A DNA stretch of 64,000 nt from positions 160,001-224,000 of the forward strand of contig JBHLQH010000001.1 in NCBI GenBank assembly GCA_048884965.1, given 5' to 3'. The translations under genes were made by a program, and so were the position numbers. The DNA comes from Candidatus Thorarchaeota archaeon (GTDB lineage Archaea; Asgardarchaeota; Thorarchaeia; Thorarchaeales; Thorarchaeaceae). Shown in pieces: positions 1,157 through 21,313 of this stretch. Every line of letters begins with the position of its first letter. Position 1 is the stretch's first letter. The notes beneath the pieces are model-generated. The model saw only the letters and a list, made by a program, of their open reading frames with translations. It had not been told where the DNA came from and did not search any database.

Positions 1157-1291
1157 GGTTTGTCAACTCAACGACTGTTCCCTGAAACACTCCCCTATAA
1201 CAGCTTCGGAGTGAATTCTTTGCCGACTGGTATGTTTTTATATCGCCTTTTGTCGATGCGGCATATCATTTACACAAGGGAGAAAGATAAT

Positions 1292-2464
1292 TTGCCCCTG
1301 AATAATACGAACATAGTAAGCGGTGCTCAGACAAAATTCGGAGTATTGGAAGGAATTAGCCTGAGAGAGATGTTTGCTGAAGCCGTGGATAAGGCTACCA
1401 TTGAAGCAGGGATACCGAAAGAGGATATCCAAGCTGCGTTCATTGGGACGTTTATCCCGGAGATGCTAGTTCATCAGGGACACACAGCTCCTCTCCTGTT
1501 GGATTTCGCTGGCTTGAAGGGCATACCAGCAACACGGCATGAGGCAGCATGTGCTTCCGGAGCAACAGCTCTAAGAGCTGGCATCATGGCAATAGAATCA
1601 GGGCTTTATGATACAGTCCTTGTTGCTGGTGCAGAGAAGATGACATCAGTTTCCACGAATCGAGCAACGGAAGCATTAGCCGCAGCGGCTGATGATGACT
1701 TCGAATCATCTATGGGCCTTACTTTTCCTGGTGTATTCGGAATCGCGGCAGTTGCTCATATGCAAATGTATGGCACGACCGAAGAGGATATGGCGCGTTG
1801 TGCGGTCAAAGCTCACAAGAACGCAGCAACGAATCCTCTTGCGCAATTCCAGAAAGAGATCACACTGGAGAAAGCTATGACACCTCGATACATCGCATGG
1901 CCTCTGAAACTTTTCGACTGCTCACCTATCTCTGATGGAGCAGCAGCGCTTGTTCTCAGCTCCAATGAGAAAGCCAAGAAATACACTGACCTTCCTGTCA
2001 AGATTGTCGGAAGTGGTCAAGCCTCTGCCTCGATGAACCTCTGTGATAGGGACCAGTTGACCTCATTTGAAGCAACTGTCAAAGCAAGCAGGTCCGCCTA
2101 CGATATGGCGGGGATGACCGCGAAGGATATGGACTTCGCTGTAGTTCACGATTGCTTCACCATTGCTGAAATCATTGCATCCGAAGACATCGGCTTCTTC
2201 AAGCCTGGCGAAGGTGCAAAGGCTGTACGTGATGGCGTGACTGAACGGGATGGTGACAAACCCATCAACCCAATGGGAGGTCTCAAAGGCGTAGGTCACC
2301 CAGTTGGTGCAACGGGAGTTAAGCAAGCATATGTCGTATACAAAGAATTGCTGGGTGAAGCCGGAGCTAACCAGATTCCGAAACACGATACGGGTCTTAT
2401 GCACAACTTCGGAGGTACAGGAGCAACTTGTGTGGTCAACATCATGAGGAGGGCTGACGCATGA
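1292..2464 (+). CDS. Thiolase (SCP2/archaeal acetyl-CoA acetyltransferase type)
   Basis: Motifs EAACASG (catalytic Cys), HDCF, GHPVGATG, HNFGG. Start placed at in-frame TTG 1292 after GGAGA; the track start at 1160 is probably too long. Confidence 0.93.
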   Translation: MPLNNTNIVSGAQTKFGVLEGISLREMFAEAVDKATIEAGIPKEDIQAAFIGTFIPEMLVHQGHTAPLLLDFAGLKGIPATRHEAACASGATALRAGIMAIESGLYDTVLVAGAEKMTSVSTNRATEALAAAADDDFESSMGLTFPGVFGIAAVAHMQMYGTTEEDMARCAVKAHKNAATNPLAQFQKEITLEKAMTPRYIAWPLKLFDCSPISDGAAALVLSSNEKAKKYTDLPVKIVGSGQASASMNLCDRDQLTSFEATVKASRSAYDMAGMTAKDMDFAVVHDCFTIAEIIASEDIGFFKPGEGAKAVRDGVTERDGDKPINPMGGLKGVGHPVGATGVKQAYVVYKELLGEAGANQIPKHDTGLMHNFGGTGATCVVNIMRRADA

Positions 2465-2850
2465 GTGAGAAACCATCAGTAGACGCCTATAAGCAATTCA
2501 TAAAGAGTGAGGATTTCCACGCATACAAATGCGTTGACTGCGGTGCTGTCATTGCACCTCCATCAGGCTCATGCTATACCTGTGGAAGCAGTAATATGGA
2601 ATGGACGACTGTCAAAGGAACTGGAAAGCTTGTTTCCTTTACGATCATTCATATCGCACCTGAGGAGTTCCAAACCGAAGCTCCCTATTACATAGGTATC
2701 GTTGAGCTAGATGAGGGAACTCGGGTAACTTGTAGACTCAAGGGATTCGATCCTGAGAATCCGACATCTGTGCGACTTGGCACACCAGTAGTCATCGACT
2801 ATGAGCATGGAGAGTCTGGTAACACCTATCTTGCTTTCAGACCTGCCTAG
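2461..2850 (+). CDS. DUF35 Zn-ribbon/OB-fold protein, thiolase partner
   Basis: CxxCG..PP...CxxC followed by G.G.L.SFT and IVELDEG; overlaps the thiolase stop (ATGA). Confidence 0.92.
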   Translation: MSEKPSVDAYKQFIKSEDFHAYKCVDCGAVIAPPSGSCYTCGSSNMEWTTVKGTGKLVSFTIIHIAPEEFQTEAPYYIGIVELDEGTRVTCRLKGFDPENPTSVRLGTPVVIDYEHGESGNTYLAFRPA

Positions 2851-2935
2851 TTCACAACTGAGTAGGAACAGTCATGAGAAACCTTCTTGACTGTTCACTA
2901 CTTCGAGTTTATTACTCTATACAAGAATATGGATT

Positions 2936-3913
2936 TTGATCACAATGGTCGAGAAGCCTCATTTAGAACACATTCGTATTTCTCCAAAGAAGCTCACGTT
3001 CAACTTGGTAGACCGAAATCTCGTAGCTTGGTACGATGAAGGACTCTTGAAAAAACACCTTCCTCCAACCTCTGGCGTAGAGTCGGCAGACATGAACTTG
3101 GTAAAGGGACTCTCCAAATACCTTCCTGAAGACACAAAGGAGGCTCTGGAATCCACCGAATTCGTCAATGTTTTTGGAAGAGCAGTGCAGAGGAAGGACA
3201 AGAAAGGCCCGCTCTGTCTGCAATACCTCTACGTTTGGGACTATCAAGCCGTGCCGCTTCATGAGGCTGACTACGAACCTATCTATGTGTATATTGAGAA
3301 TGACCAGCGATACGCAATTTATGATCTCGTACACTATTGTACCCGTAGGATAGATTTAGGACCACTGGGGCAAGATGGTCCTGGTCTGCATGTCGTTCCG
3401 GGTTGGCATTCTTTCTTGCCTGCGACCTTGAAGTCTTCACAGATAGATAGTGGTCTTCGCGTGATCCCCCTTTCAGATCAACATCTAAACTCTTGGTGGA
3501 ACATTCCCCATGAATCTACAAGATTGAAGATAGATGGACACATGCAGAATCCATTCGGACTGAAAACACCTGGTCACTTCATGGATACACCCGACGAAGA
3601 AGCGCGTACAATGTGTTGCACATTCAAGGAAATAGAAGGTGCATTCAAAGACTTCGAAAACCCAAGAGATGCCATCATTGAAGGGTTCAAACGAGCATTC
3701 GCCAGATGTATTGGGATTTTTGCACTGCATCGACTCCCTGCGTTCATTACCTTGCTGAACGAGATGAACGACGTTGGTATGATTACAGTACCTCCTGCTC
3801 TTAAACAAGGATTGAACATAGCATCAATAGGATCTTTCTTATCAGGCGGCCTAGTCACGCTGACCGAGAAAGGAAAGAGCTTTCTTGAGGGGTTGAAAGA
3901 CGAATCCGAGTGA
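2936..3913 (+). CDS. Hypothetical protein with NPP1/Vps62-like HExDxE motif
   Basis: 325-aa ORF containing LQYLYVW..Q....HEADYEPIYVY and a later PGWHSF. Confidence 0.6.
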   Translation: MITMVEKPHLEHIRISPKKLTFNLVDRNLVAWYDEGLLKKHLPPTSGVESADMNLVKGLSKYLPEDTKEALESTEFVNVFGRAVQRKDKKGPLCLQYLYVWDYQAVPLHEADYEPIYVYIENDQRYAIYDLVHYCTRRIDLGPLGQDGPGLHVVPGWHSFLPATLKSSQIDSGLRVIPLSDQHLNSWWNIPHESTRLKIDGHMQNPFGLKTPGHFMDTPDEEARTMCCTFKEIEGAFKDFENPRDAIIEGFKRAFARCIGIFALHRLPAFITLLNEMNDVGMITVPPALKQGLNIASIGSFLSGGLVTLTEKGKSFLEGLKDESE

Positions 3914-6068: not shown

Positions 6069-6506
6069 CTATTTCTTCTTCGGAGTAGCAGCCTTCTTCT
6101 TCTCTTTTGGCTGAGACTTGGTTTTGGTTTCAGGTTTTGAGGATTTCTTGGCTTTGCTTTTTGGTTTTGGCTCAGACTTGCTCGCCTTCTTCTTTGGTTT
6201 CTCTTCCTTCTCATCAAAGAGAGCATCAACAGCGCCCAGAGCCCCTTTTGCTTCAGATTCCGTGAATACCTCTAAGTCGCCTGGTTTCGCAATCTGGATG
6301 GTGACAATAGCATTTTCTCCACAAGGTCGCATTTCCCATGACATCTCTACACCTGGTTGTTCTGATACGAACTGACCAAGCATTTGCATCCACGCATCCT
6401 TTACATCATCGATGTTGGTGTACAGGAATTCCATCAACGGGATAGATATTTCGACATTAAGGATTCGTCCATCAATGATGTGGTAATTTTCGATGTCCCA
6501 AGGCAA
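6069..6506 (-). CDS. Hypothetical protein with Lys-rich C-terminal tail
   Basis: 145-aa ORF with a globular N-terminal part and a KPKKKASK...PKKK tail. Confidence 0.7.
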   Translation of the reverse strand: MPWDIENYHIIDGRILNVEISIPLMEFLYTNIDDVKDAWMQMLGQFVSEQPGVEMSWEMRPCGENAIVTIQIAKPGDLEVFTESEAKGALGAVDALFDEKEEKPKKKASKSEPKPKSKAKKSSKPETKTKSQPKEKKKAATPKKK

Positions 6507-6568: not shown

Positions 6569-9500
6569 CTATTCTTCTCCATCCTCTTCTTTCTCTTTCT
6601 TCAGGAGAGATTCAACTTCTTTTAGGAACTCATCTCTAGGATCAGCATCCTCTGTTTCTGGTTCTTCTCCTACAATCTCTTCTGGTTTCGATTCACTATC
6701 GTCTTCTTCGGGAACAACGGGCTCTTCTTCTTCGCTCGTAGGTTCATCCAAGGGTTCAGACACTTCGTCATCATCTCCAGATACATCAGCAGGTTCCTCT
6801 ACAGCATCCACATCTGTGGTATCCTCGTGAGGTATTTCCTCTATTGGAGTTGGAGTGATTTGCATGTCCATATCTGAGCTTACAATACCCAGACCTTGCC
6901 GTTGCAAGAAGGTATGAATGCTTATTGGTTGGATGATTTCCTTCTCCTCAAGTCCAACTATAATATCAAGTATCTCTGCTTCTGTTTTTCCTAACATAGA
7001 TGAGAGTGGTTGGAGGTAGTCCTCAACGAGAAACTCTCTCTTGTTTCCAAGTGATGCTTGAATGTAATTGACTATCTTCTTCTCCGGTCCTGAGAGCTTC
7101 TTGTCAGGATGAAGTGTATGAGGTAGCATCCAGCTGTATCCCAAAGTGGAGATGAGATTGGAAACGATCCACTCTGGATCAAAGCAGTCCGTAATGCCGG
7201 TCCATCCATCGAGATGACTCTCATATTCATTCTCAAAAAGATCCACGAAGAATTGTAGTCTATCCCTCATGAGAACTGAGATTTCCTTATCAAGAATGAG
7301 GATACCAAGTACATATTCCCCACTGTAGCTATTGAGCCGCAGGCCTTGATATTGAATCTCCTCTAATGTGCCTTGCACACCGTCCCCTTTTATCTCTCCA
7401 TACACACTCGTTACCGCTGAGATGAACCCACTGATCAGGTCCGCCTGAATTCTTGCTTCTTTGAATGGATGATAGAACACACAAGTTCCTCTGTTTACGT
7501 ATACCGCCATGAAGTGCTGGACTGACTTGAGATCCTCAAAGTTCTTCAATTGCCTATCCAATGCTGCTCTACCAGCTCTCTTCTTTGGCTTAATCCTCTT
7601 GTTGTATCCAACTGATAGAATCGCCAATATCCCGATGCCAAGTAGCACATACCTTCCTTCCTCCACAAACCAGAATGACAAAACCTGTTCTATGGGGTCC
7701 AGATTAACTGGGATAGTATATGCTTTCGAAGCATCCCAATACACATAATCCTCGTTAATGCTTCCATCATAGAACACCTCGATAAGGATACTTGTCACCC
7801 GATTATCTGTAACCTGAGGGATGTCGAATGATACTGATGCCAGACCTTGAGCGTTTGTGCTATCTTGAACTGATACCAAAACACTTGTTCCATTATCATA
7901 ATTTACTGTGATATTGAATAGAAGTGTTCTGAGTTGAAGTGCTCTCTCAGTGTCATTCTCTCTGAGACGGGCATCAATGGAGATGGTGTTCCCTTGAAAT
8001 GCACTCCCTGAGAAACTTATACTGATGTAGACATAGGTCTTTGCTAGAACTCGGATGGAGATATCCTCAGTTGCGGGATTTGTACCATTTGCTAATGCTG
8101 AAATTGTTGCTGTATGGTAGTTTACTGTGAAATCAAGAACAAAGACTACGACATAATGTGACCCATTGAAGGTCATGGGGTATACTGTGCCCTCAATAGT
8201 TAGATTGACTGTTGCCCAATAGATAATCGTTCGATGGATATCATCAACAAATTCTACTGCAATCTCGATATCTTCAGTTTCATATTGACTATAAATTGGG
8301 CTGGTGACCACAATTTCTGTCGTCGCTCGAATTGTCAGATTAAGCTGAATTGAGGTTGTAACGAATCCGGTTTCTGTGAGTATTACTTGGATTTGATGTG
8401 TGCCCATGACTGCATCGGGGATAATAGCAACAGAATAGAGACCATTCCCGAGATGCGTCATAGTGAACTTAGAATCCAATAGCGTGACGGTCAGATTACT
8501 ATTCAAAATGGGATTGCCAAGGGAATCATGAGCTGAGACATTCAGCACTATGTTCGTTTCGTAGTCGGTGACCTCATGGTCAGACCACGAATCAGTGAGG
8601 ACTGGTACATCTTCCCATATGTCAAGGATGTTCTGAACACTTTTATTTCCATATCCGACTGCATCAGCAAAGACTGTGAATTCCCAGTAGCCGACACCAA
8701 TGTCACTACCTGGGAGGAGAGTATACCAAAGGCCATCAGATGAATTGTACTGCAAAGATATTGGAGTGGATACATTGAATTGAATTGTCAAGGTCGCAGC
8801 TGGAACAGGACTTCCTGAATAGGAATAGTTGGCAATAATCCTGAATGATTCAACATAGGTCATATCCTGATCTGATGGAGTGATTATGATCTCAAGTGAC
8901 GTGGCTGATTCCTCATATACATACAATTTCAGACTGCTATTGGCTTGAGATTCATGACCAAGCTTCCATGCATTCACTGTGAGATTGATCGTATCGGGAA
9001 AAGTTGAGAAATCAGTTCCATTGAATTGAATGGTGTAATTCTCAGCGACTGGATCCCATGTTAACGACCACGTCGAAGTTCCATCAGTGACATTTACTAT
9101 CGCATTTGCAATTGCAGTTCCATTGGCAAATCTATAGAGTATGGTGAGATTGGTACTCTGTAGATATGTTATGCCATTCTCTTGTGGATCCGTCCAATTG
9201 TATGTAAGGGCTAGTGTTTCATATGTTAATTCCACATCTATAGATAATGATTGATTCTCAATAGCGAAACCCTCTGCATATACAACAACTGAGTGTAACC
9301 CTGCGATCTCACCTGTTGTATCAATAACTGCTGTCCAAGTTCCATTTCCAAGGTCTGTTAATGATACATTGGATCCTGAATCATATGAATACACTACGCT
9401 TGCATATGTAGCAGTTAGAGGAGTTGGACTGAACGTATCCACAAAATCAACTCTAATCTCGAAGCTGCTGTCCGTGAAAGCTTCCATTTGGGTGTTACCG

Positions 9501-11113
9501 GTTAAGCTTGTTGGATAGTATACAAGAATTTCTTTTGTTAGGTAACCTGCTTCTGTGCCGTTCGTCCAGAACATCTCAAGAACGTAAGTGCCATTGGAAG
9601 AGACCCACGCATCAATATTCCAGAGATAGGAGAATCCCATAGCATAGGTTCGGTTTGGAGGATTATAGACCGCAGAGCCCTCGTATGTAGCTGTCAAATT
9701 CATAGATCCCGAATCAACGTCAGTGCCAATTCCATCCTCTACTATGGCCGTAATAGTGACTGTATCTTCAATACTTGCGATATCAGGCGATTGGATTTCT
9801 GTGATATAATTATCAGCTGTGTGTGATAAAGTCCATGTGCCATTCGTCATGCTTGAGCAAGTGACAGTTGTCCCTGAAACCGCATAGTTCCCATAGTTTG
9901 TGGAAGGTGTCGTACTATTGTACAATCCCGTGACTGACCAATCAAGAGGTCTTGTGAAGTTCATGTACCTGCTAATCGTTCCGCTTGTATTCGGGTATTG
10001 AATTGCTGCAGTGATATTCCATTCTATAGAATCGCCAGATGTCTGCACATCCCAAATTGTTGAAGCATCAAAGTTTCTCTTGTACCAAAGGGTGAGGTCA
10101 TATGTCATATCTATGGACTGATTTGTCTGAAAAGCAATTGAACTCAATCCTGCACCATTCAAAAATTCCCAAGAAGTTCCAGTAAGACCAGTTGAGTTAC
10201 CTAAAAGGGAAACCTCGTCAGCGCTGAAATATTTCAATGCGGCGTTGCTTGTTTGATTCCAAGGTGTGTACGTATAATTCAAGTTCGCTTCCCGACGATT
10301 TATTCCACTGTAAGGCCACCAAGCATCACCTCTTAGGTTATACAAAGTCTGAAGTCCCAAGAACGAATCGGTGGCTTCCCAATTTATCCGATTGAAATAC
10401 CATGTATCTACAATATATACTCCTGATAGCGCCGTTCCATCAATGACAACATAATATGTACTGCCGGAGGACAAGATTGCATTATCGCTAGAAACATCAT
10501 GAGTGTACAAAACAGCTGATGGATTTTGAGTGAATGGAGAAACCCAAGAAGTTTCATTTGTTGAACCATCAGAGTAGTCACTTCTGACGACCAACCATGC
10601 TTTTCCAAGAGAAGTAGTGTAATATGGCACTGCGTACTCTACAGTATAATTCTCCAGTCTTCCATCGTGGGGTTGATTGTAAAATGCTTGTGTAAGGGCA
10701 TCGGTAACCAGACCACTTGCATTTCGTATCATAATTGGTGTGGATGGATTAGGAGTTACACCTAATGACTCTCTTTCTGAAATAGCTGTCATATCGGTCA
10801 TGTCGATATCCGCTCTATAAAGCGTCCATCCAGAGATCACATATCCAGATAGATCTAAACTCCCCAGGTGTGTGAGATCTGAATATGAGTTTGATATTGT
10901 AGATGAGATGCCTGTTAGGACTCTAGACATATTTGCAGTAGCTTCAGTAGAGCTTCCCTGGCCTCCAGCTTGTGCAACTTGAAACAAAGCATCATTATCT
11001 ATTGAATCTAATGTAATTGCATTCATGATTCTGTCAGGTGATGATGTGATTGTAGGAATACATAGTATGACTAGGAACATTGCTGTTAGTGCAATAATAC
11101 GGTTTGACTTCAA
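6569..11113 (-). CDS. Large single-pass surface glycoprotein with Ig-like repeats and cytoplasmic longin-like + wHTH domains
   Basis: Signal peptide, many N-x-S/T sequons, beta-rich ~100-aa repeats, TM YVLLGIGILAILSVGY followed by a basic stop-transfer, then GTCVFYHPF...ADLISGFISAVTSV longin-like segment and an acidic tail. Confidence 0.85.
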   Translation of the reverse strand: MKSNRIIALTAMFLVILCIPTITSSPDRIMNAITLDSIDNDALFQVAQAGGQGSSTEATANMSRVLTGISSTISNSYSDLTHLGSLDLSGYVISGWTLYRADIDMTDMTAISERESLGVTPNPSTPIMIRNASGLVTDALTQAFYNQPHDGRLENYTVEYAVPYYTTSLGKAWLVVRSDYSDGSTNETSWVSPFTQNPSAVLYTHDVSSDNAILSSGSTYYVVIDGTALSGVYIVDTWYFNRINWEATDSFLGLQTLYNLRGDAWWPYSGINRREANLNYTYTPWNQTSNAALKYFSADEVSLLGNSTGLTGTSWEFLNGAGLSSIAFQTNQSIDMTYDLTLWYKRNFDASTIWDVQTSGDSIEWNITAAIQYPNTSGTISRYMNFTRPLDWSVTGLYNSTTPSTNYGNYAVSGTTVTCSSMTNGTWTLSHTADNYITEIQSPDIASIEDTVTITAIVEDGIGTDVDSGSMNLTATYEGSAVYNPPNRTYAMGFSYLWNIDAWVSSNGTYVLEMFWTNGTEAGYLTKEILVYYPTSLTGNTQMEAFTDSSFEIRVDFVDTFSPTPLTATYASVVYSYDSGSNVSLTDLGNGTWTAVIDTTGEIAGLHSVVVYAEGFAIENQSLSIDVELTYETLALTYNWTDPQENGITYLQSTNLTILYRFANGTAIANAIVNVTDGTSTWSLTWDPVAENYTIQFNGTDFSTFPDTINLTVNAWKLGHESQANSSLKLYVYEESATSLEIIITPSDQDMTYVESFRIIANYSYSGSPVPAATLTIQFNVSTPISLQYNSSDGLWYTLLPGSDIGVGYWEFTVFADAVGYGNKSVQNILDIWEDVPVLTDSWSDHEVTDYETNIVLNVSAHDSLGNPILNSNLTVTLLDSKFTMTHLGNGLYSVAIIPDAVMGTHQIQVILTETGFVTTSIQLNLTIRATTEIVVTSPIYSQYETEDIEIAVEFVDDIHRTIIYWATVNLTIEGTVYPMTFNGSHYVVVFVLDFTVNYHTATISALANGTNPATEDISIRVLAKTYVYISISFSGSAFQGNTISIDARLRENDTERALQLRTLLFNITVNYDNGTSVLVSVQDSTNAQGLASVSFDIPQVTDNRVTSILIEVFYDGSINEDYVYWDASKAYTIPVNLDPIEQVLSFWFVEEGRYVLLGIGILAILSVGYNKRIKPKKRAGRAALDRQLKNFEDLKSVQHFMAVYVNRGTCVFYHPFKEARIQADLISGFISAVTSVYGEIKGDGVQGTLEEIQYQGLRLNSYSGEYVLGILILDKEISVLMRDRLQFFVDLFENEYESHLDGWTGITDCFDPEWIVSNLISTLGYSWMLPHTLHPDKKLSGPEKKIVNYIQASLGNKREFLVEDYLQPLSSMLGKTEAEILDIIVGLEEKEIIQPISIHTFLQRQGLGIVSSDMDMQITPTPIEEIPHEDTTDVDAVEEPADVSGDDDEVSEPLDEPTSEEEEPVVPEEDDSESKPEEIVGEEPETEDADPRDEFLKEVESLLKKEKEEDGEE

Positions 11114-11323
11114 TCTTCATCGCCTCACTGTCTTCCCCTTTTGAGATTGGAGCCATAACCAGCTTTCTGGTTCCTGAAGCTCAATCAAGGGTACTAGATG
11201 ATGCTGGTGGCATGTGTTATCACAAATGTCACATGGGTCCTAGAAACATGACGATTAGTGCTTATTTATAGCTATCCTGAACTAACTGCTTCGAAAAATA
11301 GATGACCATTTCATAATAGAAAG

Positions 11324-14300
11324 TCAATCTATAGTATCTGTATATCCAATCTTCCGAATCCTGCCTTCTCGTATCTCTACAACATCCACATTGTCGTTCA
11401 ATAGGTCATTTACTAGCTTTCGTGTTTTTGAAATGCTGAGATTAAGTTCTACAGATATTTCCTCTCGTGACAAAGGTTTGCCTGCTTCTTTAAGCAGACG
11501 AATTAGTTTGGATCCATCGTCGACCACCTCTTTTCCTTGAGGAGTTTCTCTAACAAATAGAGAAACAGTTGTCGAGATTCCTGCAGCAGCGAGAAATGCA
11601 CTTGTTGATGATTCATCGATTCCTGATATTTCATCTATTTCTCTCAGTGAATCAATTACATCTGGAATCAGTAATTCATTTTCTTTCGATATTTGGTATA
11701 CTGATTGAGCGATGTCCGGAGCATGTGAAATGGCTGGACCCGGTGTGAGCGAAGTCATATCGGTTCTGGAAGACAATCCCTCAACTCTCCTTCTTTTTCT
11801 TAGCAAGACTGCAGCAATGCCTACTGCTGCAACTCCTCCAACTGCTAGTGTGACTGTTAATGGTCCTGTAAGTGGAGTTGTGGGTTCAGGCGTGATTTGA
11901 ATGACACTGATTACAGTTGTCGATGATTCAACTGGCCATGCACTGATTTCTCCAGCAAAGATCGCTCTTACGAATATTTCATTACTATCCATTGGTACTG
12001 TGTAGCTAATAGTTATCCTTCCATCAGAACCTGTGGATAACATGAATCTCTCCTCTATTTCTGAGCCATTCAAGAACGCAATTCCGAGAATTATCTCTAT
12101 GACCTTATCCGATATTGGTTGCGAGTTATAGGTCAAAGAAGCGGAAATTGAAATCGCAGAGTCTTCTTCCGCCGCATCTGGATGTGACAGTGCAATTTCG
12201 TAAGCCATCTTTTCAAGGACTGTCAATGTTATGTTAAAATCTGAGACATCGAAGTCGCTAGCAATCGCCTGCAAGAATATCTGATATATGCCTGGAAGTA
12301 GATTCTCTGGCAATTCAAACTCTATTCGATACAGTTCCAAGACGGAATCAAACATCATCTGATATTCGTTTTCCTCAAACGTGAAAGAGAGAGATGCCCA
12401 TGTGACATTTGTGTCATGATATGCATCAACGAGAAATGCTGTGATAAGAAGAGATTCTTGTTCGTATTGGCTAATGCTCTGATCAGACACGATATTCAGT
12501 GGGAGGAGGTCGACCTGAATCTGTTGGATATAACCCATTGCTATGTATCCTTCTTTTGATAGATGAACCTCGATCGAATAGTTGCCAGCAGACAATGCTG
12601 TGCTGCTTACGAGAATTGAGTATACATTGTTAGCTAAGAGCTCGATTTCATATTCACCTTGCCATGATACTTGAATCGCAACATCATCTATGTTCTCATT
12701 AGTCCGAAGATCTCTATATTGAAGACGAAGTTCCAAAGTGTCATTCACATACAACCAGTCACTCCCTATGCTTACCAAAGTGGTTGGTATCAGATGAATA
12801 AACACATCGAATTGATAGAATTGTGAATCGAATCCTTCAGAACTTAGGTTAACTGTACATGAGTAATATCCAGCATCATGAATCAATCCAGGAATAGTAA
12901 AGGTCCAGTTGGTCATATCCCATGTTGCTAGAATTTCTGTTTGGTTGAGTTGGATGTACACGATTGTGTTGGGAATTGATGAACCATTAAGCATCTCATA
13001 GGATATCGATCCATTCACGAACCCATCAGCGTATATCGTCGTATTCGTATGGATCACACTGAAGGCGGTTGACGTAGCTATTACATCCAATGTGAGGAGT
13101 GATTCTATTGTATTGAACCAGCTTCCAGTAATTGATACATTCACTACATAGGTGCCAATAGATAGTTGGGGTCCAATTATTGTGGTGTAAATGCCTTGGC
13201 CTTCATTGAGTACAACAAGCATAAATGAGTTTAGAGATATTGTCACTGTGGCATCTGTAACAGGGTTTCCAGCTGATGAGTTGCATTCAATGCTTAGAGC
13301 TGCAGTTGATATATAGTCAATCGTCGACTCCGTCCAGTTTGAGGTGAATTGCAGAGTGTCCCTATAGACGGTAATTATCTTCCATTCGTTTCCTTCTTGC
13401 TGTCCCGTTCGATTTGCCCTTATTGTGGCGTTCCAAGTGCCCAAAGAGATGTCAAATCCTGAAAGAGTAATGTGCCACATCTGATCGGTGCTGCTATATT
13501 CCAAGGGGTAGGGTGAAGAACTATTCAAGACCAAGGTCACGGTCGCATCAAGTATGGGCTGGAAATCGCTTGTGTATATCACGGATATATTGAGCTCAGT
13601 GATGATATTCACATTTCCATCTGATGGTTCCCAGTAGACCAAGAATGAGTTGGATGCTAATGTCACATTAACATTGTATGTCGTGTTGGTGAACACTCCG
13701 AAACCATATTGCCATGCACTGATATAGGCTTCATAGACTCCTATTCCTATTTGTCGACCTAGAATAGAGATTTTCCAAGAACCCAGTGAATATGTCAGAT
13801 TATAGACAATGCTGTTAATGGTAACATTCACCGTTGCTGTATCTGGCACATCTCCATATGACGACAAGTAATCTACGGTGAGATTCAATAGATCCGTGTA
13901 TTCTATTGTGACATTCGATGGTTCCCATGTAAGAGATGATATAGCTGTTGAAACTACTGCAACAGTTACTATTGTTGTGTTCTCTTGGTACTCGTAACCA
14001 TACACCCAAGTTCTGATGAGAATCGCATGTGGTCCTAGATCAAGCATCACACCACTGAGGTTTGCAATCCAATAGTTGCCAGATGTATTGAGACCAATGG
14101 TATACCAGCCATCAATTGTGATATTTGCTGTCACAATCGTTTTACTAACATCTCTGAATGCATTGTCATCCCAGTATTGTGCTGTGAGATTTGCTTGTCC
14201 TAAGTAGTCGATTTCGACTGAATCCCATGTGACAAAGAGTGACGTAGGCACTTCTGTAATATTGTAGTGGAATCCATCTTTGAATGCGTAGTCGTAGCCT

Positions 14301-17300
14301 ACCTTGCTCACATTTACAGTCACTACATGATAGCCCAAACCCGTTTCATAACCGAGCTGAATCCAATAGTATCCAGATGCTTCATTCATTGAATAGATTG
14401 TGCCATTCACAGTTACGGTTTTTTGAGAGGCTCCAGGAATGAATGTTCCCATAGAATCTCGATAATAGACTCGCAACACCTCAGTTTGAGTGTAGTAGAA
14501 TGTTGAATTCGAATCTGTTCCTGCTCTCTGCCACCATATTGAAACACTTGTTCCTTCATTTATGATCGCAAATACTGTACTAATCTCCACATTAGTGTAG
14601 ACCGGTCCAGATGCCTTCACTACAGGTAGAAAACTACCCAGACCTGGGGGATTGTCGGTACCATTTAGTACGAGCTCGTACCCTCCGCTTGTTTGATTCC
14701 AATTCAAGTCAAATGTAAACCCTGCAATCGTTATGTTAAGAGAACCATCAGAAATAGAAGTTCCATTACTCATCCTATAGAAAACAACTATCTTGGTTTG
14801 CTCGATATACGTGATCGTGTTCCCTTGTGGCCATGTCACTTCTAGAGAGGATGGATCTTTTCTTACGATTAATGTCTCATCGGAATCAGATTGAGATTGA
14901 TAGCCATATGCATCCGCCTGGATGAATAACGCATGTTCTCCAAATCCTGGAGGTGTATCTGTGCCATTAATGATGAGCTCAAATCGTTCGCTAGTTCCAT
15001 TCCATAATAGATTCCAAGTAGTAAACCCGATCGTTACATTAACGGTTGCGAATGGAATGTTTGAACCATTGCTCATTTGGTAAATCACTTGGATGGCTGT
15101 GAATTGGAAATAGCTGATATTATTCAGATAGGGCGTTATCCACGAAGCACTGAGAGAGGTGCCTTCATTTGTGATTGATAGAACCATCGAGGTGTCTTGG
15201 ACGTAGTCAAATCCATCTCTCCATGCCTTTATTGTTAGGCTGTGAACACCTAGTCCTGGTTGATTATCGCTTCCATTGAATTGGATACGATAAGTTTCAG
15301 AAGCATCATCCCATATCAGATTCCAAGTTGTAGTATCTATCGTCACATTCACTATAGCAAGAGGTATTGCAGTTCCATTACTCATTGTATAATTAGCTGA
15401 TAGTATTGTAGATTCAACAAAGGTTATGGTTCCCCCACCAATCCACTGACTCTCTATCTGACCTAATTCACCAGTTATCACAAGATTTTCTGTGCTGTCT
15501 ACATGTGATTGATATCCAAATCTCCATGCTCGGATGGTAAGTCCATGAGTTCCAAGACCAGGTGGCACATCTGTTCCATTGAACTGAATTCGATAGGTAT
15601 CAGAGTCCTCATCCCATTGAAGTGTCCAAGTACCAGTTCCAATAGTTACATTCAGTTTCGCACTAAGAACAGCACTACCATTTGTCAAGGTGTAGTTGAC
15701 AGAGAGAATTGTCGATTCAACATATGTAATCGAATTCCCCGGAATCCAATCGATGGTCATCGCTGTACCCTCGACAGTAATTGATAGGACCTCTGTCGAA
15801 TTAACTTGAGTTTGATAGTTTGCTTTCCAAGCAGAGATGAGAATATTGTGTATGCCAAGTCCGGGTAAAGCATCTGTACCATTGAAAGATATCTCGTAAT
15901 ATTCAGTAGATGGATTCCATATCAAAGACCAAGTCGTGGAGTCAATCGTGACATTGATGGTTGCTTCAAGGATTGAAGTTCCATTTCTCAAATAGTACCC
16001 AATTTGCAATGTTGTAGTTTCAAGATATGATATTGAGGAGTCAGCATCCCACCCAATAGTTAGGTCTGCATCTTCGACACGTATTGTCAACTCCTGAGTA
16101 GCATCAATCACTGAGATATAACCGAATTTCGAACTCTTTATGGTGAGGGGGAATGTCCCAAACCCTGGAAATGAATCGCTTCCATTGAATTGAATCTCAT
16201 AGCTTTCTGAGGTTGAATTCCAAAACATGGATAATGTAGTTGTATCGATTGTCACATTGACTATCGCATCAACAATTGGAGTCCCATTACTCATTTGATA
16301 CACAAGCACCAATGTTGTAGATTCTAGATAGGATATGTTATTGCCAAATACTATGTTCCAGTTCAGTGAATAGATGATCTCCTCTTGTCTAAGTGTCAAT
16401 TCCTGTGCGCTATTCGTGAATGACACATATCCGAACTTCTCAGCTTTGATTATCATTGAATGCGTACCAAGACCTGGTGGAGTATCCGTTCCATTGAATA
16501 TTAGACGATAATCAAGATTTGACGCATCCCATCTTAGGATCCATGTGGTTCCGCTAATAGTAGCATTAACGACTGCATTTGGAATCTCTGTGCCATTGCT
16601 CATGAGATAATCGATAATCAGAGTAGTGTGCTGCACATAGGTTATGTTATCTGTAGCTGACCAATTAATCGTATAACTAGTATCTTCCTTACTCACTGTC
16701 AGTGTTTCAGTATCATCAACCCAACTCTGGAAGTCCACCTTTGAGGCTCTGATATCTAGGCTGTACGAATCGATTCCTGGTGGATCATCATAACCATTGA
16801 AAACGACCTCATAGATCTTTGACACACCGTTCCACTGTAGAGTCCAAGTCGTGACTCCAAAAGTCACATTCACAGTTGCTTGCTCAATTACAGTACCATT
16901 GAACATGGTATAGTTTACGATCAGTTTGGTTGATTCGACATAGGATATAGAATCTCCATTTGTCCATGAAATGTCGAATAGGGTTGGAATTACTGGAAGT
17001 GTCAATGTTTGAGTTGTATCAACTTGTTCCTCATATCCGAATACCCAGCAACTTACCGAAAGACTATGCGTTCCCACGCCTGGAGGTACATCGGATCCAT
17101 TGAATGTTATTTCAAAGTACCCCGACGTTGAGTTCCATATCAAGAGCCAGGTCATACTATCGATTGTTACATTGACCTCTGCATTTGCAATTGGAGTAAG
17201 GTCAGACTTCGTATAGCCCACCAGCAATGTTGTGGAATCTAAGTAACTAGGACTGTTTGTGTTCGTCCATTGAACAGAGAATAGGGTTGGTTCAATTCTT

Positions 17301-20300
17301 AGTGTGACATCATAGGTGTTATTCGTTTGATGGATGTAGCCATACTTGCCAGCTTTCACCAGAACATTGAATGTGCCAAACCCAGGAGGTGAATCTGATC
17401 CATTTAATCGCAACCTGTAATTCTGATTATCGGAATCCCACCACAGATTCCAGACATTCGAGTTGATTGTGACGTTAACTTCTGCGCCAATGATTGCAGT
17501 TCCATTGCTCATAAGATAGGTGGCAACTATTGTCGAATAATCAGTGTACGTGATGTCATTATCAGGTAGGAGTACAATTGTAAGGGTTGTGTCCTCAGGG
17601 TTTATCGTTAATGTGCTTCCATCTGTTCTATCGATATATCCATACTTGCCTGCTTTAATTGTAATCGAGTGGGTTCCAAATGATGGCGGATTGTCTGTGC
17701 CATTGAATGTAATGACGTATGTGGATGTAGACTGATTCCAGACCAATAACCAGGTATCGCCATTGATTGTAGCATTAAGATTAGCATCCACAATCGCAGA
17801 GCCATTACTCATGGTGTAGCTCACGTTTAGAATTGTATACCCAACATAGCTTATCGTGTTCGTGGATATCCACTCGAAAGCTAGAGATGTGAACTCCTCC
17901 CTGAGAATTAGATTTTCTGTATTATTCTCTCTGCTTTCATATCCAAGCAAATCAGCTTTCACAATTATTGAATGTGTTCCAAAGTCTGGTGGTGCATCTG
18001 TCCCATTGAATTGGATCTCGTAGTATCCTGTACCAAAATTGTAGCTTAAATCCCAAGTAGTAAGACCTATAGTAACATTTACTTCAGCGGTATCGATTGT
18101 ACCACCTGAGGTCAATGAGTAGTTAACCTGAAGGATAGTGTACTCAACGTAACTGATGTTATTCCCATTTGACCACTGAAATGAGAGAATTGTTGGCTCC
18201 TCTCGTATAGTGATGGTCTTAGAACTATCAGCTTGACTTTCGTAGCCATATCTATCTGCATTGATATTGACTGTGAATATTCCAAGACCAGGTGGCACAT
18301 CTGACCCATTTATCCTGATTCTGTAGTCCTCGTTTGCAGGGCTCCAAGTAAGATTCCATGTGGAAGTTCCCAAAGTGACATTAATGATTGCACCCAATAT
18401 CGCAGAGTCATTACTCATCAAATAATCACAGATTATTGTGGAATATTCTGTGAATGTAACATCATTATCAGGTTCAATTACCACAACTATTGAGGTTCCT
18501 TCTAGGTCTATTGATAGAGTTTCGGTGTTATTCATTCTGTCAACATAACCAAATTTGTCAGCGAGAATTGTAATTCCATGTGTCCCAAATCCTGGGAATA
18601 GGTCATCACCGTTGAACTGATATCTGTAAGTCTTGGACCCTGATTCCCAGTCAAGAGATAATGTTGTGGTGTCTATTGTAAAATTCAATGTGGCTCCTTC
18701 AATGGCAGTCCCATTGCTCATTGTATAATTTACAATCAAAGTCGTGTATTGAACATAGGTTATGGAATTCGTGTTTCCCCACTGAACAGTAAGTGAAGTG
18801 TCTTCTTCAGAAACAGTAAGGATTTGGCTACTATCGTATTGGGATTCATACCCATATTTGGATATAGCAATCTCAACTAAATGAACACCAAAGCTTAGCT
18901 GTGGTGAACTTCCGATAAATGTGCAATTGTACGTTTTACTATCTGAATCATATACAAGGTCGTATGTGTATCCGTTTATCGTTACATTCGCGATAGCATC
19001 AACAATTGAAGTACCATTTGACATCAAATACGATATCGATAAAGTTGTACTTTCAACATAAGAAATGCCATTGCCTGATGTCCATTGGATATTAATCGTT
19101 GTTGATTCTTTCCTGATCGTGATACTCTCAGAATCATCATATTGATTTTGATATCCAACCTTCCAAGCTTGAATGGTGATTGAATGAGTACCAAAACCTG
19201 GATCTGAATCTGTTCCATTGAATCTCATTTTATATGTTTCATCAACTGGGTCCCATCTGAGCTTCCAAGTTGTGGTGTCAATTGTCACATTCAACTGAGC
19301 ATCAGATACATTTTCTCCTGATGTTCTTTGGTAAAGCACGGACAATTCTGTGTATTCTACATAAGTAATATTGTCAGAATTCGACCACCAAATGTCAAGG
19401 GGTAAAGTTTCATGTATTAGAGACACATGTATTTCCAATGATTGATTCTCTAATGCGAAACCCTCCGCATATACATCTACGATATAATCACCTGGAGCTT
19501 TACCTGTGGTACTAATGCTCGCTGTCCATGTGCCATTTGCGAGATCACTCATAGTAGCATTTGATGCTCCATCAAACGAGTATTGTACTGTTCCCAGACT
19601 ACCATTGATGCCCTTGGGTGTGAAGATTTCTTCGTAATCTACCCTAATCGCAAAACTGCTTTCCGTATAGGCATTGATTGCATATGACGTAGCTGTGAAG
19701 GTTGTTGAATGAAATACTGCGAGTTCTTGAGTCAGATACCCTGAAGATGAACCATTTGTCCAAAATGCCTCTATTCTATAGATTCCGTTCTCACTTATTG
19801 TGGAAGGTATATTCCAACTATAGCTTGTTCCTCCTGACGAAACCGATTCATTTGCTGGAGCGAATATGATTGTGGAGTCTTTCCAAACTGTAAGATTGGT
19901 AGTTCCACTCAGAACAGGACTACTGCTCTCCTCTGAAAGTGTCAAATTGATCTCCAAGATGACCTCACTGTTAACCTCATAGGTAATCGGGGAATCATCA
20001 CTAGAATCATAGCTGGATATATCCGAAAGATGATTGAACGAAGTAGAAACGAGCGTCCATGTGTCATTATTCACAAACGATGCTGCTACTATATTCTGAG
20101 AAACTAAATAGTATGAATGATTCGATGATGGCATCGACGAATTATACATCCCAGTTGGCTTCCATGTACTTGGAATCGTGAAATTCAAGTATCGCATATC
20201 CGATGATTTGGGATACTCTGGGGTGGCTGTAAGATTCCAATTGACCATGTTTCCTGAATTTTGAACTTCCCATTGAGCCGACCCTTTCATATCCTGCTTA

Positions 20301-21313
20301 TACCAGAGCGTGATAGAATAATCGATTTGAACAGATTGATTGCTTTGGAATGAAATAGATGTGATGTTACTGCTGTCACTAAATGTCCAGGAATCTCCCG
20401 TTAACGAAGATGAGTTAGCTGTAAGAGAAACTGATTCTGGAATGGAATAGACCAAAGCTGAGTTGGAGGTTTGGTTCCAAGGTGTATAAGCATATTGCAG
20501 GAACGCTTCTTGTCTTTCTGCACCAACATATGGATACCAAGTGCTATCATCTCGCAATCGATAGCCAGTATCATCTCCCAATACGGATGATGAGGACCGC
20601 CAATAGAGCTGAGGGAATCCTCCATAGTTAATGAGTCCTGTACCATCTATTACAACATAATATGGAGTAGACTCAGACAAAATGCTATTGTCCGATGAAC
20701 AATCATGGGTAGTAGTTGTGTCAAATATTGTCTGAGTGAAAGGAGTAGAATAGCTTGTTTGATTTGTACTGGGATCGGTGAAATCGCTCCGAACAACAAG
20801 GTAGGTTTGACCAGCACCAGAGGGAAGATATGGCGCAATATAGATTAGTGTATAATTCTCGAGTCTTCCATCATGAGGTTGGTTGTAGAACTCTTGGTAA
20901 AGTGCATCAACAGTCAAACCGGAGCTATTCCTGATTTGCATATAGCTATTCGGAGTGATTCCTGTTGATTCCCGTTCGGGAACTGCTGTGATGAGAGATG
21001 GTTCTACATCCGCTTTATACAGACACCATCCAGACAGTAAGTAGCTTGACAGATCTATCTCTCCGAGATGCTGGCTTGTGCTAGAATACGAATTTTGAAC
21101 ATTGAGGTCTAGTCCATCTATTACCCTCGATGCATAGATACTCACATCCTGTTCATCACCAGCTCCACTCACATAGCTAAGTACTGAATTTCTGCTTTCA
21201 GTTAGAGTCTGTTCTCTCATATCGGTTACTTTCTCGAGGGGAAGAATACTCAGCGATGGAATTGGCACTGCAAGTACTATTCCAACGATTAGGATAACGA
21301 GAACTCTCTTCAT
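11324..21313 (-). CDS. Giant (3329 aa) single-pass surface glycoprotein with tandem Ig-like repeats and C-terminal wHTH
   Basis: Signal peptide; N-terminal ~630 aa paralogous to 6569..11113; repeated NGxDxxPG[FL]GxHxxxIxAxKxGY; TM LAVGGVAAVGIAAVLL-RKRRR; C-terminal LSREEISVELNLSISKTRKLV HTH. Confidence 0.88.
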   Translation of the reverse strand: MKRVLVILIVGIVLAVPIPSLSILPLEKVTDMREQTLTESRNSVLSYVSGAGDEQDVSIYASRVIDGLDLNVQNSYSSTSQHLGEIDLSSYLLSGWCLYKADVEPSLITAVPERESTGITPNSYMQIRNSSGLTVDALYQEFYNQPHDGRLENYTLIYIAPYLPSGAGQTYLVVRSDFTDPSTNQTSYSTPFTQTIFDTTTTHDCSSDNSILSESTPYYVVIDGTGLINYGGFPQLYWRSSSSVLGDDTGYRLRDDSTWYPYVGAERQEAFLQYAYTPWNQTSNSALVYSIPESVSLTANSSSLTGDSWTFSDSSNITSISFQSNQSVQIDYSITLWYKQDMKGSAQWEVQNSGNMVNWNLTATPEYPKSSDMRYLNFTIPSTWKPTGMYNSSMPSSNHSYYLVSQNIVAASFVNNDTWTLVSTSFNHLSDISSYDSSDDSPITYEVNSEVILEINLTLSEESSSPVLSGTTNLTVWKDSTIIFAPANESVSSGGTSYSWNIPSTISENGIYRIEAFWTNGSSSGYLTQELAVFHSTTFTATSYAINAYTESSFAIRVDYEEIFTPKGINGSLGTVQYSFDGASNATMSDLANGTWTASISTTGKAPGDYIVDVYAEGFALENQSLEIHVSLIHETLPLDIWWSNSDNITYVEYTELSVLYQRTSGENVSDAQLNVTIDTTTWKLRWDPVDETYKMRFNGTDSDPGFGTHSITIQAWKVGYQNQYDDSESITIRKESTTINIQWTSGNGISYVESTTLSISYLMSNGTSIVDAIANVTINGYTYDLVYDSDSKTYNCTFIGSSPQLSFGVHLVEIAISKYGYESQYDSSQILTVSEEDTSLTVQWGNTNSITYVQYTTLIVNYTMSNGTAIEGATLNFTIDTTTLSLDWESGSKTYRYQFNGDDLFPGFGTHGITILADKFGYVDRMNNTETLSIDLEGTSIVVVIEPDNDVTFTEYSTIICDYLMSNDSAILGAIINVTLGTSTWNLTWSPANEDYRIRINGSDVPPGLGIFTVNINADRYGYESQADSSKTITIREEPTILSFQWSNGNNISYVEYTILQVNYSLTSGGTIDTAEVNVTIGLTTWDLSYNFGTGYYEIQFNGTDAPPDFGTHSIIVKADLLGYESRENNTENLILREEFTSLAFEWISTNTISYVGYTILNVSYTMSNGSAIVDANLNATINGDTWLLVWNQSTSTYVITFNGTDNPPSFGTHSITIKAGKYGYIDRTDGSTLTINPEDTTLTIVLLPDNDITYTDYSTIVATYLMSNGTAIIGAEVNVTINSNVWNLWWDSDNQNYRLRLNGSDSPPGFGTFNVLVKAGKYGYIHQTNNTYDVTLRIEPTLFSVQWTNTNSPSYLDSTTLLVGYTKSDLTPIANAEVNVTIDSMTWLLIWNSTSGYFEITFNGSDVPPGVGTHSLSVSCWVFGYEEQVDTTQTLTLPVIPTLFDISWTNGDSISYVESTKLIVNYTMFNGTVIEQATVNVTFGVTTWTLQWNGVSKIYEVVFNGYDDPPGIDSYSLDIRASKVDFQSWVDDTETLTVSKEDTSYTINWSATDNITYVQHTTLIIDYLMSNGTEIPNAVVNATISGTTWILRWDASNLDYRLIFNGTDTPPGLGTHSMIIKAEKFGYVSFTNSAQELTLRQEEIIYSLNWNIVFGNNISYLESTTLVLVYQMSNGTPIVDAIVNVTIDTTTLSMFWNSTSESYEIQFNGSDSFPGFGTFPLTIKSSKFGYISVIDATQELTIRVEDADLTIGWDADSSISYLETTTLQIGYYLRNGTSILEATINVTIDSTTWSLIWNPSTEYYEISFNGTDALPGLGIHNILISAWKANYQTQVNSTEVLSITVEGTAMTIDWIPGNSITYVESTILSVNYTLTNGSAVLSAKLNVTIGTGTWTLQWDEDSDTYRIQFNGTDVPPGLGTHGLTIRAWRFGYQSHVDSTENLVITGELGQIESQWIGGGTITFVESTILSANYTMSNGTAIPLAIVNVTIDTTTWNLIWDDASETYRIQFNGSDNQPGLGVHSLTIKAWRDGFDYVQDTSMVLSITNEGTSLSASWITPYLNNISYFQFTAIQVIYQMSNGSNIPFATVNVTIGFTTWNLLWNGTSERFELIINGTDTPPGFGEHALFIQADAYGYQSQSDSDETLIVRKDPSSLEVTWPQGNTITYIEQTKIVVFYRMSNGTSISDGSLNITIAGFTFDLNWNQTSGGYELVLNGTDNPPGLGSFLPVVKASGPVYTNVEISTVFAIINEGTSVSIWWQRAGTDSNSTFYYTQTEVLRVYYRDSMGTFIPGASQKTVTVNGTIYSMNEASGYYWIQLGYETGLGYHVVTVNVSKVGYDYAFKDGFHYNITEVPTSLFVTWDSVEIDYLGQANLTAQYWDDNAFRDVSKTIVTANITIDGWYTIGLNTSGNYWIANLSGVMLDLGPHAILIRTWVYGYEYQENTTIVTVAVVSTAISSLTWEPSNVTIEYTDLLNLTVDYLSSYGDVPDTATVNVTINSIVYNLTYSLGSWKISILGRQIGIGVYEAYISAWQYGFGVFTNTTYNVNVTLASNSFLVYWEPSDGNVNIITELNISVIYTSDFQPILDATVTLVLNSSSPYPLEYSSTDQMWHITLSGFDISLGTWNATIRANRTGQQEGNEWKIITVYRDTLQFTSNWTESTIDYISTAALSIECNSSAGNPVTDATVTISLNSFMLVVLNEGQGIYTTIIGPQLSIGTYVVNVSITGSWFNTIESLLTLDVIATSTAFSVIHTNTTIYADGFVNGSISYEMLNGSSIPNTIVYIQLNQTEILATWDMTNWTFTIPGLIHDAGYYSCTVNLSSEGFDSQFYQFDVFIHLIPTTLVSIGSDWLYVNDTLELRLQYRDLRTNENIDDVAIQVSWQGEYEIELLANNVYSILVSSTALSAGNYSIEVHLSKEGYIAMGYIQQIQVDLLPLNIVSDQSISQYEQESLLITAFLVDAYHDTNVTWASLSFTFEENEYQMMFDSVLELYRIEFELPENLLPGIYQIFLQAIASDFDVSDFNITLTVLEKMAYEIALSHPDAAEEDSAISISASLTYNSQPISDKVIEIILGIAFLNGSEIEERFMLSTGSDGRITISYTVPMDSNEIFVRAIFAGEISAWPVESSTTVISVIQITPEPTTPLTGPLTVTLAVGGVAAVGIAAVLLRKRRRVEGLSSRTDMTSLTPGPAISHAPDIAQSVYQISKENELLIPDVIDSLREIDEISGIDESSTSAFLAAAGISTTVSLFVRETPQGKEVVDDGSKLIRLLKEAGKPLSREEISVELNLSISKTRKLVNDLLNDNVDVVEIREGRIRKIGYTDTID
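14560..19400 (-). repeat. 16 tandem ~101-aa (~303 nt) Ig-like repeats inside the giant gene
   Basis: Counted 16 consecutive units with I[ST]Y.E.T.L...Y.MSNGT.I..A.VNVTI...TW.L.W and NGxDxPPGxG. More diverged units continue toward the TM. Boundaries are approximate. Confidence 0.85.

Follow-up and report, generated by a model that had tools for sequence, protein, structure and literature searches.

Tandem giant surface glycoproteins of a Thorarchaeal family: an adhesin-like protein with a predicted longin-winged helix cytoplasmic tail and its long-stalked relative

A window of 64,000 nucleotides from a Candidatus Thorarchaeota archaeon (assembly GCA_048884965.1, contig JBHLQH010000001.1, positions 160,001 to 224,000 of the forward strand) contains two adjacent, uninterrupted open reading frames on the minus strand, here called A and B, that encode giant surface proteins, with A sitting 210 nucleotides downstream of B. 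The original prediction for this locus was that the two proteins hold a similar extracellular head at two distances from the membrane and couple it to unrelated cytoplasmic tails, each containing a winged helix-turn-helix (wHTH). Analysis of the two proteins and their relatives settled their anatomy with good confidence and added two points beyond that prediction: judged from sequence comparison, the longin-wHTH tail of A appears to be pan-Asgard, and the long gene appears to derive from a single ancestral gene of medium length. The features of the pair, in window coordinates and with lengths in amino acids (aa), are as follows.

6569..11113, minus: gene A, 1514 aa, TTG start; type-I surface glycoprotein with a longin-wHTH cytoplasmic tail (open reading frame; homologues of head and tail)
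11039..11113, minus: A, signal peptide-like N-terminus, residues 1-25 (hydropathy)
10235..10885, minus: A, tip domain, residues ~77-293; predicted jelly-roll, lectin-like beta-sandwich holding FYNQPHDGRLENYT, LVVRSD and YTPWNQTSN
9197..10234, minus: A, remaining head, residues 294-639; predicted macroglobulin (MG)-, immunoglobulin (Ig)- and PKD-like beta-sandwiches, the first stalk-type unit (540-622) among them
7664..9196, minus: A, stalk, residues 640-1150; four ~101-aa Ig-like units detected by a hidden Markov model (HMM), plus a membrane-proximal segment
7604..7657, minus: A, transmembrane segment, residues ~1153-1170, then NKRIKPKKR
7127..7525, minus: A, predicted longin-fold domain, residues 1197-1329, with a juxtamembrane helix ahead of it
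6884..7120, minus: A, winged-helix-like domain, residues ~1332-1410; three helices and a strand in the model, PF22451 in homologues
6572..6883, minus: A, acidic disordered linker, 35% Asp plus Glu, terminating in a conserved amphipathic motif
6596..6634, minus: A, C-terminal motif DEFLKEVESLLKK; family pattern [DE]xF[VLI]x[DE]VExLL[KS]
11114..11323, minus: B-A intergenic spacer of 210 nucleotides, with a T-run past the B stop and a TATAAATA box (direct reading)
11324..21313, minus: gene B, 3329 aa; type-I surface glycoprotein with a long stalk and a short wHTH tail (open reading frame; homologues)
19388..21241, minus: B, head, residues ~25-642; paralogue of the A head
14885..19387, minus: B, amplified stalk core, residues 643-2143; 16 units with a mean pairwise identity of 44%, of a type occurring once in A (640-725)
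11864..14884, minus: B, stalk part next to the membrane; 8 units found by HMM, divergent (mean identity 20%), and a last segment
11798..11863, minus: B, transmembrane helix, residues 3151-3172, then RKRRR (hydropathy)
11522..11797, minus: B, cytoplasmic linker, residues 3173-3264; unconserved and longer than in relatives (alignment)
11327..11521, minus: B, C-terminal winged helix, residues ~3265-3329 (HTH profile matches; conserved alignment block)

The head shared by A and B, on which the original prediction was built, was confirmed. BLASTP aligned the two proteins with 39% identity over 972 aa (E 2e-177), all of the quoted motifs (FYNQPHDGRLENYT, LVVRSD, YTPWNQTSN, FWTNG and YAEGFA.ENQSL) fell within the aligned blocks, and tblastn with the 640-aa head gave 47% identity between the two copies. 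One stalk-type unit falls within the 630 aa originally assigned to the head, so that the unique head is about 540 aa long. An AlphaFold2 (AF2) model of A residues 30-730 (701 residues), aligned with 26 relatives, was all beta, with a predicted local distance difference test score (pLDDT) of 87. Searched as a whole with Foldseek, this model matched only generic strings of Ig and MG domains, including two S-layer proteins, at a template modelling score (TM-score) of 0.13-0.23. An exhaustive VIA structure search resolved the individual domains, revealing a lectin-like tip that the whole-model search had not seen and an MG/Ig-like remainder. The head thus does not look like a generic S-layer domain, an outcome that would have told against the original prediction: its tip resembles a lectin-like jelly roll, and no S-layer domain was recognisable. 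Comparison of the tip with the ESM Atlas, which is without a model of the A protein, returned chance-level matches only (0.81), and Pfam searches of the whole A and B proteins gave nothing at E <= 0.1 except two chance-level matches.

The stalks account for the difference in size. An iterative HMM started from one stalk unit detected 5 units in A, spanning residues 540-1016, and 25 in B, spanning 542-3025, with a period of ~101 aa, a result that fits the earlier estimate of about 5 versus more than 25 Ig-like units. By their matches to solved Ig, MG and PKD domains, beta-sandwiches of about 90-100 aa, they are Ig-/MG-like beta-sandwich repeats. The 8 membrane-proximal units of B pair with distal units of A, and the 16 similar core units of B belong to a type that is single in A, indicating that most of the length difference stems from a single unit that was amplified long ago. 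At the DNA level, Tandem Repeats Finder detected no repeat in A or B, also indicating that the stalk units are old. An Ig-like domain is about 4 nm long; by this measure A would form a rod of roughly 10 domains and ~40 nm, and B one of roughly 30 domains and ~110 nm.

The topology of both proteins is that of type-I membrane glycoproteins. Each begins with a hydrophobic, signal-like segment. The transmembrane segment of A, a 16-residue hydrophobic stretch (1155-1170) with weaker hydropathy than that of B, aligns with the transmembrane segment of all relatives. NxS/T sequons are 2.4-fold enriched (41 in A versus 17 expected, 120 in B versus 49 expected), and the final sequon of A, at residue 1074, lies N-terminal of the transmembrane segment. 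Signal peptides, transmembrane segments with basic stop-transfer sequences and sequon placement together indicate one membrane span per protein and cytoplasmic C-terminal domains, as originally proposed, and none of these signals placed the tails outside the cell. B-class proteins also have [DN]P[LMI]x[LV] conserved immediately ahead of a Gly/Ala-rich transmembrane helix (window 11798-11880, minus, and orthologues), a feature absent from the A class. A PGF-CTERM/sortase-like anchor for the B-class transmembrane helix, suggested by the [DN]P and by a chance-level LPXTG-anchor match, was dropped because a folded domain comes after the helix in most members.

The cytoplasmic tail of A had been read as a longin-like domain, a wHTH and an acidic tail, and the structural evidence agreed. 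An AF2 model of A residues 1176-1415, aligned with 39 homologues (40 sequences in all), reached a pLDDT of 82 and a predicted TM-score of 0.79, with a juxtamembrane helix, beta-beta-alpha, a low-confidence loop, beta-beta-alpha-alpha and finally a unit of helices and one short strand. The best PDB matches in Foldseek were all longin domains (adaptor sigma/mu, zeta-COP, Fuzzy, TRAPP Bet5/Trs23, VAMP7 and Mon1-Ccz1), with roadblock proteins lower, and the whole-domain match to solved longins, in the order beta-beta-alpha-beta-beta-beta-alpha-alpha, assigns the modelled domain to the longin fold. Used as a profile against PDB sequences, the tail alignment gave nothing significant (E 1.3, to Sap). 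The unit after the longin (H168-180, H189-199, H203-215 and E219-221 in model numbering) is, on family-level evidence, most likely a winged helix: PF22451, the NirdL-like HTH, was matched in 23 of the 40 tail A homologues (best E 3.8e-6), with the window protein itself below threshold at E 0.19. No NPR2/NPR3 match was present among the 25 commonest Pfam families that the 40 tail homologues hit at E <= 1. In the beta1-beta2 loop of the longin, A has NRGTC, where the family consensus is DRGTC and the 14 Asgard relatives compared show xGx[CSIV]. The acidic tail has a helix at its end, and the motif that closes the linker recurs in nearly all full-length A-class relatives and is doubled in some.

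Tail B was likewise consistent with the linker and wHTH assigned to it. It has no second copy in the genome, and its C-terminal block of ~60 aa is conserved among orthologues while the linker is poorly conserved. Profile matches included HTH_IclR at 21.7 bits against a cut-off of 22, as well as TFIIE_beta, HTH_24 and DUF7343, and HTH_24 was found in 5 of 7 orthologous B tails (best E 2e-5). Comparison of the two tail alignments with hhalign detected no relation, a weak test in that the tail A alignment (A1) includes ectodomain columns.

Analysis of the head family linked stalk length to tail type. An exhaustive HMMER search over 1.84 billion representatives found the head in only 102 representative clusters, N-terminal in every one. 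Among 301 Asgard genomes surveyed, the full head was present in 56 of the 76 that belong to the same family as the window, mostly once per genome and at a constant syntenic position; outside that family it occurred in 1 sister-family genome at 30% identity, and other families showed weak matches to the Ig-like part only. The C-terminal partners of the head, tabulated across the 102 clusters, separated by gene size: genes of 1460-2170 aa, with 4-14 units, end in the longin-wHTH tail, and those of 2550-3360 aa, with 18-26 units, nearly all end in a B-type tail of 88-156 aa, with two intermediates. The long gene of genome G128 (L026 4407-13526, plus strand) has an apparently intermediate tail of 317 aa, in which a longin-like domain and a wHTH are followed by a B-type wHTH.

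Synteny indicates how the pair arose. In the window and in each of the 7 tandem loci fetched, the genes run in the order pyruvate:ferredoxin oxidoreductase (POR) genes, CN-hydrolase, DUF2299, the long gene, the short gene, a small conserved gene and LarA. In three single-copy genomes, one medium gene (1768-1961 aa) with a longin tail occupies the identical slot, indicating that the long gene is the derived copy of a tandem duplication. In a quick maximum-likelihood tree of the heads (IQ-TREE, alignment A2), five genomes contributed a clade of long heads whose sister is a clade of short heads; in G087, G120 and G128 the long head grouped with the short head of its own genome with support of 100, which suggests repeated duplication or gene conversion between tandem heads.

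The 240-aa longin-wHTH module was matched in 165 of 201 Asgard genomes and in 81 of the 85 high-quality ones, covering nearly all families sampled. Outside the window's family, the best matches begin at the juxtamembrane helix and lie inside open frames of 1000-2250 aa. Fourteen loci from other families were fetched, and 12 of them encode a hydrophobic N-terminus (cut off by the contig end in one case), a sequon-rich ectodomain of 650-1800 aa, a transmembrane segment, P[KR][KR]R and the module within ~25 residues. These 12 proteins have 10-86 sequons ahead of the module and 0-4 after it, and their ectodomain heads are unrelated to the Thorarchaeal head. Positions in the module alignment are conserved phylum-wide, and the transmembrane segment with longin-wHTH appears, from these alignments, to be a pan-Asgard module joined to unrelated large ectodomains. 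The literature searched contained no account of a longin domain serving as the cytoplasmic tail of a surface protein, which is not proof of absence. Split forms, in which a tail-less surface gene would be followed by a gene of its own for the longin-wHTH, were sought among smaller frames; all five fetched examples are cut short by contig ends and are uninformative. Four relatives from family f9 (L034, L035, L036 and L044) carry a conserved extension of 180-400 aa after the module (LVNDLAxMxPAEREAYF..., then Lys-rich helical repeats) that is absent from the Thorarchaeal proteins.

Soluble relatives of the module are encoded in the same genome. A 397-aa protein in the window (39660-40853, minus) has no Pfam match; its N-terminal part (MYIIKRETGVCMYHKDF...DLISSFISAMTSFF) and the tail A longin are paralogous (E 2.3e-7). 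A 348-aa protein (L004 1498-2544, plus strand, contig C6 of genome G000) is a copy of the whole module, with 37% identity to tail A over 226 aa and its own C-terminal extension. On contig C66 of the same genome, two overlapping, co-oriented and translationally coupled genes of 292 and 304 aa (L009 539-1414 and 1411-2322, plus strand) each appear to encode a longin and a wHTH, and one of them has a weak HTH_NPRL3 match (E 0.0047, below cut-off). The C66 pair could form an NPRL2/NPRL3-like heterodimer, and the soluble longin-wHTH paralogues are candidate heterodimer partners of tail A. Longins, including an 'NPRL2-like' form in most Thor metagenome-assembled genomes (MAGs) and fusions with GTPase, roadblock, TRAPPC3 and two-component domains, have been described from Asgard archaea (bioRxiv 10.1101/2020.10.19.343400; PMC10933270; PMC12290439).

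We propose that A is probably an adhesin-like surface glycoprotein with a membrane-apposed longin-wHTH docking platform, and B a stalk-amplified derivative that lacks a platform of its own. From the sequence relationships, folds, topology signals, phyletic distribution and synteny, we infer ligand binding, docking and signalling as follows. Both proteins would be single-pass and heavily N-glycosylated, with a lectin-like jelly-roll tip carried on an Ig/MG-like rod, and the tip may bind an external ligand, either a glycan or the surface of another cell. Longin domains are known as GTPase platforms and as dimers (PMC10933270, PMC12290439), and the longin-wHTH of A, held to the inner face of the membrane, could dimerise and serve as a platform on which a cytoplasmic partner docks, most likely a small GTPase or another longin-wHTH protein. 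Docking on this module would couple the surface protein physically to cytoplasmic machinery, and the acidic linker with its terminal amphipathic motif may provide a second, flexible binding site. B may have arisen from the ancestor of A by tandem duplication in situ, ~16-fold amplification of one stalk unit and loss of the longin, which left the terminal winged helix. Stalk amplification and longin loss would together mean that B presents a related tip much farther out, with a cytoplasmic connection that is reduced or dependent on a partner.

Several observations weigh against this proposal. Heads that are only 39-47% identical need not share a ligand. Within the longin sheet, the strongly conserved third strand (TLEEIQY) has a pLDDT of only ~46-53 in the model, and the wHTH matches of both A and B are under Pfam thresholds in the window proteins themselves. 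The GTPase-activating protein (GAP)-type longins FLCN, NPRL2, SMCR8 and C9orf72 are reportedly marked by a GP motif where the beta1-beta2 loop ends, beside an arginine finger (PMC12290439); no GP motif is present in that loop of tail A, and membership of the GAP-type longins was rejected. The long gene of G087 (L024 3642-12617, plus strand) stops 8 residues past the transmembrane helix and has no cytoplasmic tail, so a B-type tail is dispensable at least there. No Ras/Arf-type GTPase gene was found on the whole window contig (G000 contig C1), the 36 matches in the genome all lying elsewhere, and no GTPase or other signalling gene is linked to A and B here. Thus, of the original proposal of a modular receptor, not an S-layer protein, in which a sensing head feeds two outputs, the architecture stood, whereas the function was not supported by the divergence of the heads, the tail-less G087 gene or the gene neighbourhood.

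The near-universal, single-copy and syntenic presence of the head in the family is equally compatible with a plain envelope protein, and the main alternative is that A and B are the principal envelope proteins, S-layer-like or part of a glycocalyx, whose cytoplasmic domains merely anchor or oligomerise them, for example by longin dimerisation, and carry no information and engage no GTPase. Besides the fixed slot beside housekeeping genes, the sequon-rich Ig-like string with a C-terminal transmembrane anchor recalls many archaeal S-layer proteins, Foldseek matches include the Nitrosopumilus and B. anthracis Sap S-layer proteins, and both the missing tail in G087 and the lack of linked signalling genes are what such a protein would lead one to expect. 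The S-layer matches, however, reflect generic Ig arrays at the low TM-scores given above, and a ~240-aa module conserved phylum-wide behind unrelated ectodomains, together with a conserved terminal linear motif, far exceeds what an anchor needs. In addition, the surface proteins of cultured Lokiarchaea are complex and unordered and form no S-layer lattice (PMC9834061). We regard an envelope role alone as possible, though unlikely.

Because both tails contain winged helices, A and particularly B could instead be membrane-tethered transcription regulators, acting in the manner of ToxR and CadC or after proteolytic release like Notch or anti-sigma factors. Tail B and its orthologues match HTH_24, IclR, MarR_2 and TrmB, annotation pipelines call tail A fragments Lrp/AsnC regulators, and a flexible linker of 30-95 aa separates the transmembrane helix from the wHTH in B-class tails. 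Nevertheless, a wHTH that follows a longin, as in NPRL2/3 (Pfam HTH_NPRL3), is a protein-interaction module, domain order and HTH type differ from those of ToxR and CadC, no protease site or linked protease was seen, and the long gene of G087 dispenses with the tail altogether, making DNA binding an improbable function.

The terminal motif of A-class tails also matches the eukaryotic acidic dileucine pattern [DE]xxxL[LI], maybe by coincidence. A sorting tail, in which the longin and the acidic LL motif use coat- or adaptor-like Asgard proteins to steer the protein to vesicles, protrusions or a subdomain of the membrane, would draw on that match and on the adaptor sigma/mu and zeta-COP longins among the nearest folds, and we consider it very improbable, given that so short a pattern arises easily in any amphipathic helix and that no coat has been shown in Thorarchaea.

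The docking platform proposed for A can be extended to a bolder scheme, which we put forward as speculation that is rather unlikely to hold in full. Here, the transmembrane segment with longin-wHTH would be an Asgard-wide coupling device, in which engagement or clustering of the tip alters the dimer state of the longin and recruits or regulates either a small GTPase or a soluble partner of the NPRL-like longin-wHTH kind, making A a prokaryotic outside-in adhesion receptor and B a far-reaching co-receptor that signals via A or a soluble paralogue. If so, the device would be a part that eukaryotes later used in the guanine nucleotide exchange factor (GEF), GAP and adaptor complexes of membrane traffic.

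Asgard archaea encode dozens of longin and roadblock proteins and small GTPases, and A, by placing a longin platform under the membrane attached to an adhesin-like rod, offers a concrete, testable link between a lattice-free surface and the cytoplasm. The long and short genes also provide a natural experiment, in which a related tip is combined with a roughly three-fold change in stalk length and with a longin that is present or lost. Finding a GTPase or cytoskeletal partner would provide a prokaryotic precedent for receptor-to-GTPase coupling, with a bearing on eukaryogenesis; if no partner were found, A and B would still be the best candidates for major surface proteins of an uncultured Asgard family.

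The genes around A and B are ordinary archaeal housekeeping genes, namely a thiolase and its OB-fold partner, LarA, a VTT membrane protein, CN-hydrolase, DUF2299 and POR. Immediately downstream of A lies one further conserved gene:

6069..6506, minus: small downstream gene, ~98-aa conserved core plus a Lys-rich tail; same-strand neighbour in 10 of 12 loci examined

Its core follows the pattern PWxIENYxI...VEIxIPL...DDVKxAW...SWEMxP, to which the window copy adds a Lys/Pro-rich tail, and it has no Pfam match. The gene is missing where the surface gene stands in another context (G075 and G112). Scans of the locus for sigma-70 promoters and intrinsic terminators did not rise above shuffled sequence, with models that are uninformative for an archaeon.

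Comparison with known systems places A and B beside several groups of proteins. Like the archaeal S-layer and surface glycoproteins (Nitrosopumilus 8c8l; Sulfolobales SlaA/SlaB), they are N-glycosylated Ig-like strings with a C-terminal transmembrane anchor, encoded by two adjacent genes; the similarity is that of generic Ig arrays (TM-score ~0.14 for 8c8l, 0.13-0.23 for 8c8l and 6qx4), and S-layer proteins lack a folded cytoplasmic domain of ~240 aa. ToxR and CadC have an N-terminal cytoplasmic wHTH of OmpR type, a transmembrane segment and a C-terminal external sensor, whereas the order in A and B is reversed and their HTH matches are of HTH_24, IclR and MarR types, with Trans_reg_C in just 2 of 40 tail A homologues (E 0.054). 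Eukaryotic adhesion receptors, such as Ig-type cell adhesion molecules and those with integrin-type outside-in coupling, resemble A in having a signal peptide, a glycosylated Ig-like rod with a binding tip, one transmembrane segment and a tail that combines a linear motif with a folded adaptor domain, although the head and tail of A are not homologous to theirs and coupling in A is hypothetical.

The closest parallels to tail A are among longin proteins. NPRL2 and NPRL3 of GATOR1 and the 'NPRL2-like longin' Asgard clusters of orthologous genes (asCOGs; Liu et al., bioRxiv 10.1101/2020.10.19.343400) also have a longin followed by a winged-helix-type domain; tail A differs in lacking an NPR2/NPR3 Pfam match and a GP motif, and the Asgard 'NPRL2-like' forms are described as soluble or fused to two-component domains, whereas A is a surface-protein fusion. 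The Asgard Roadblock-Longin and longin-GTPase fusions (Tran et al. 2024, PMC10933270; PDB 8yqg) are cytosolic and joined to roadblock or GTPase domains, whereas the longin of A forms the tail of a type-I membrane glycoprotein. Finally, the eukaryotic longin platforms (Fuzzy/Inturned, the Mon1-Ccz1 tri-longin GEFs, TRAPP Bet5/Trs23, adaptor sigma/mu, SRalpha SRX and Sec22b/VAMP7) share a common fold with tail A at 7-14% identity. A longin is defined functionally by its binding of a small GTPase, SNARE or coat partner, usually as a homo- or heterodimer, a role that is only predicted for A; in A, by contrast, the longin is covalently tethered through a transmembrane helix to a giant extracellular glycoprotein.

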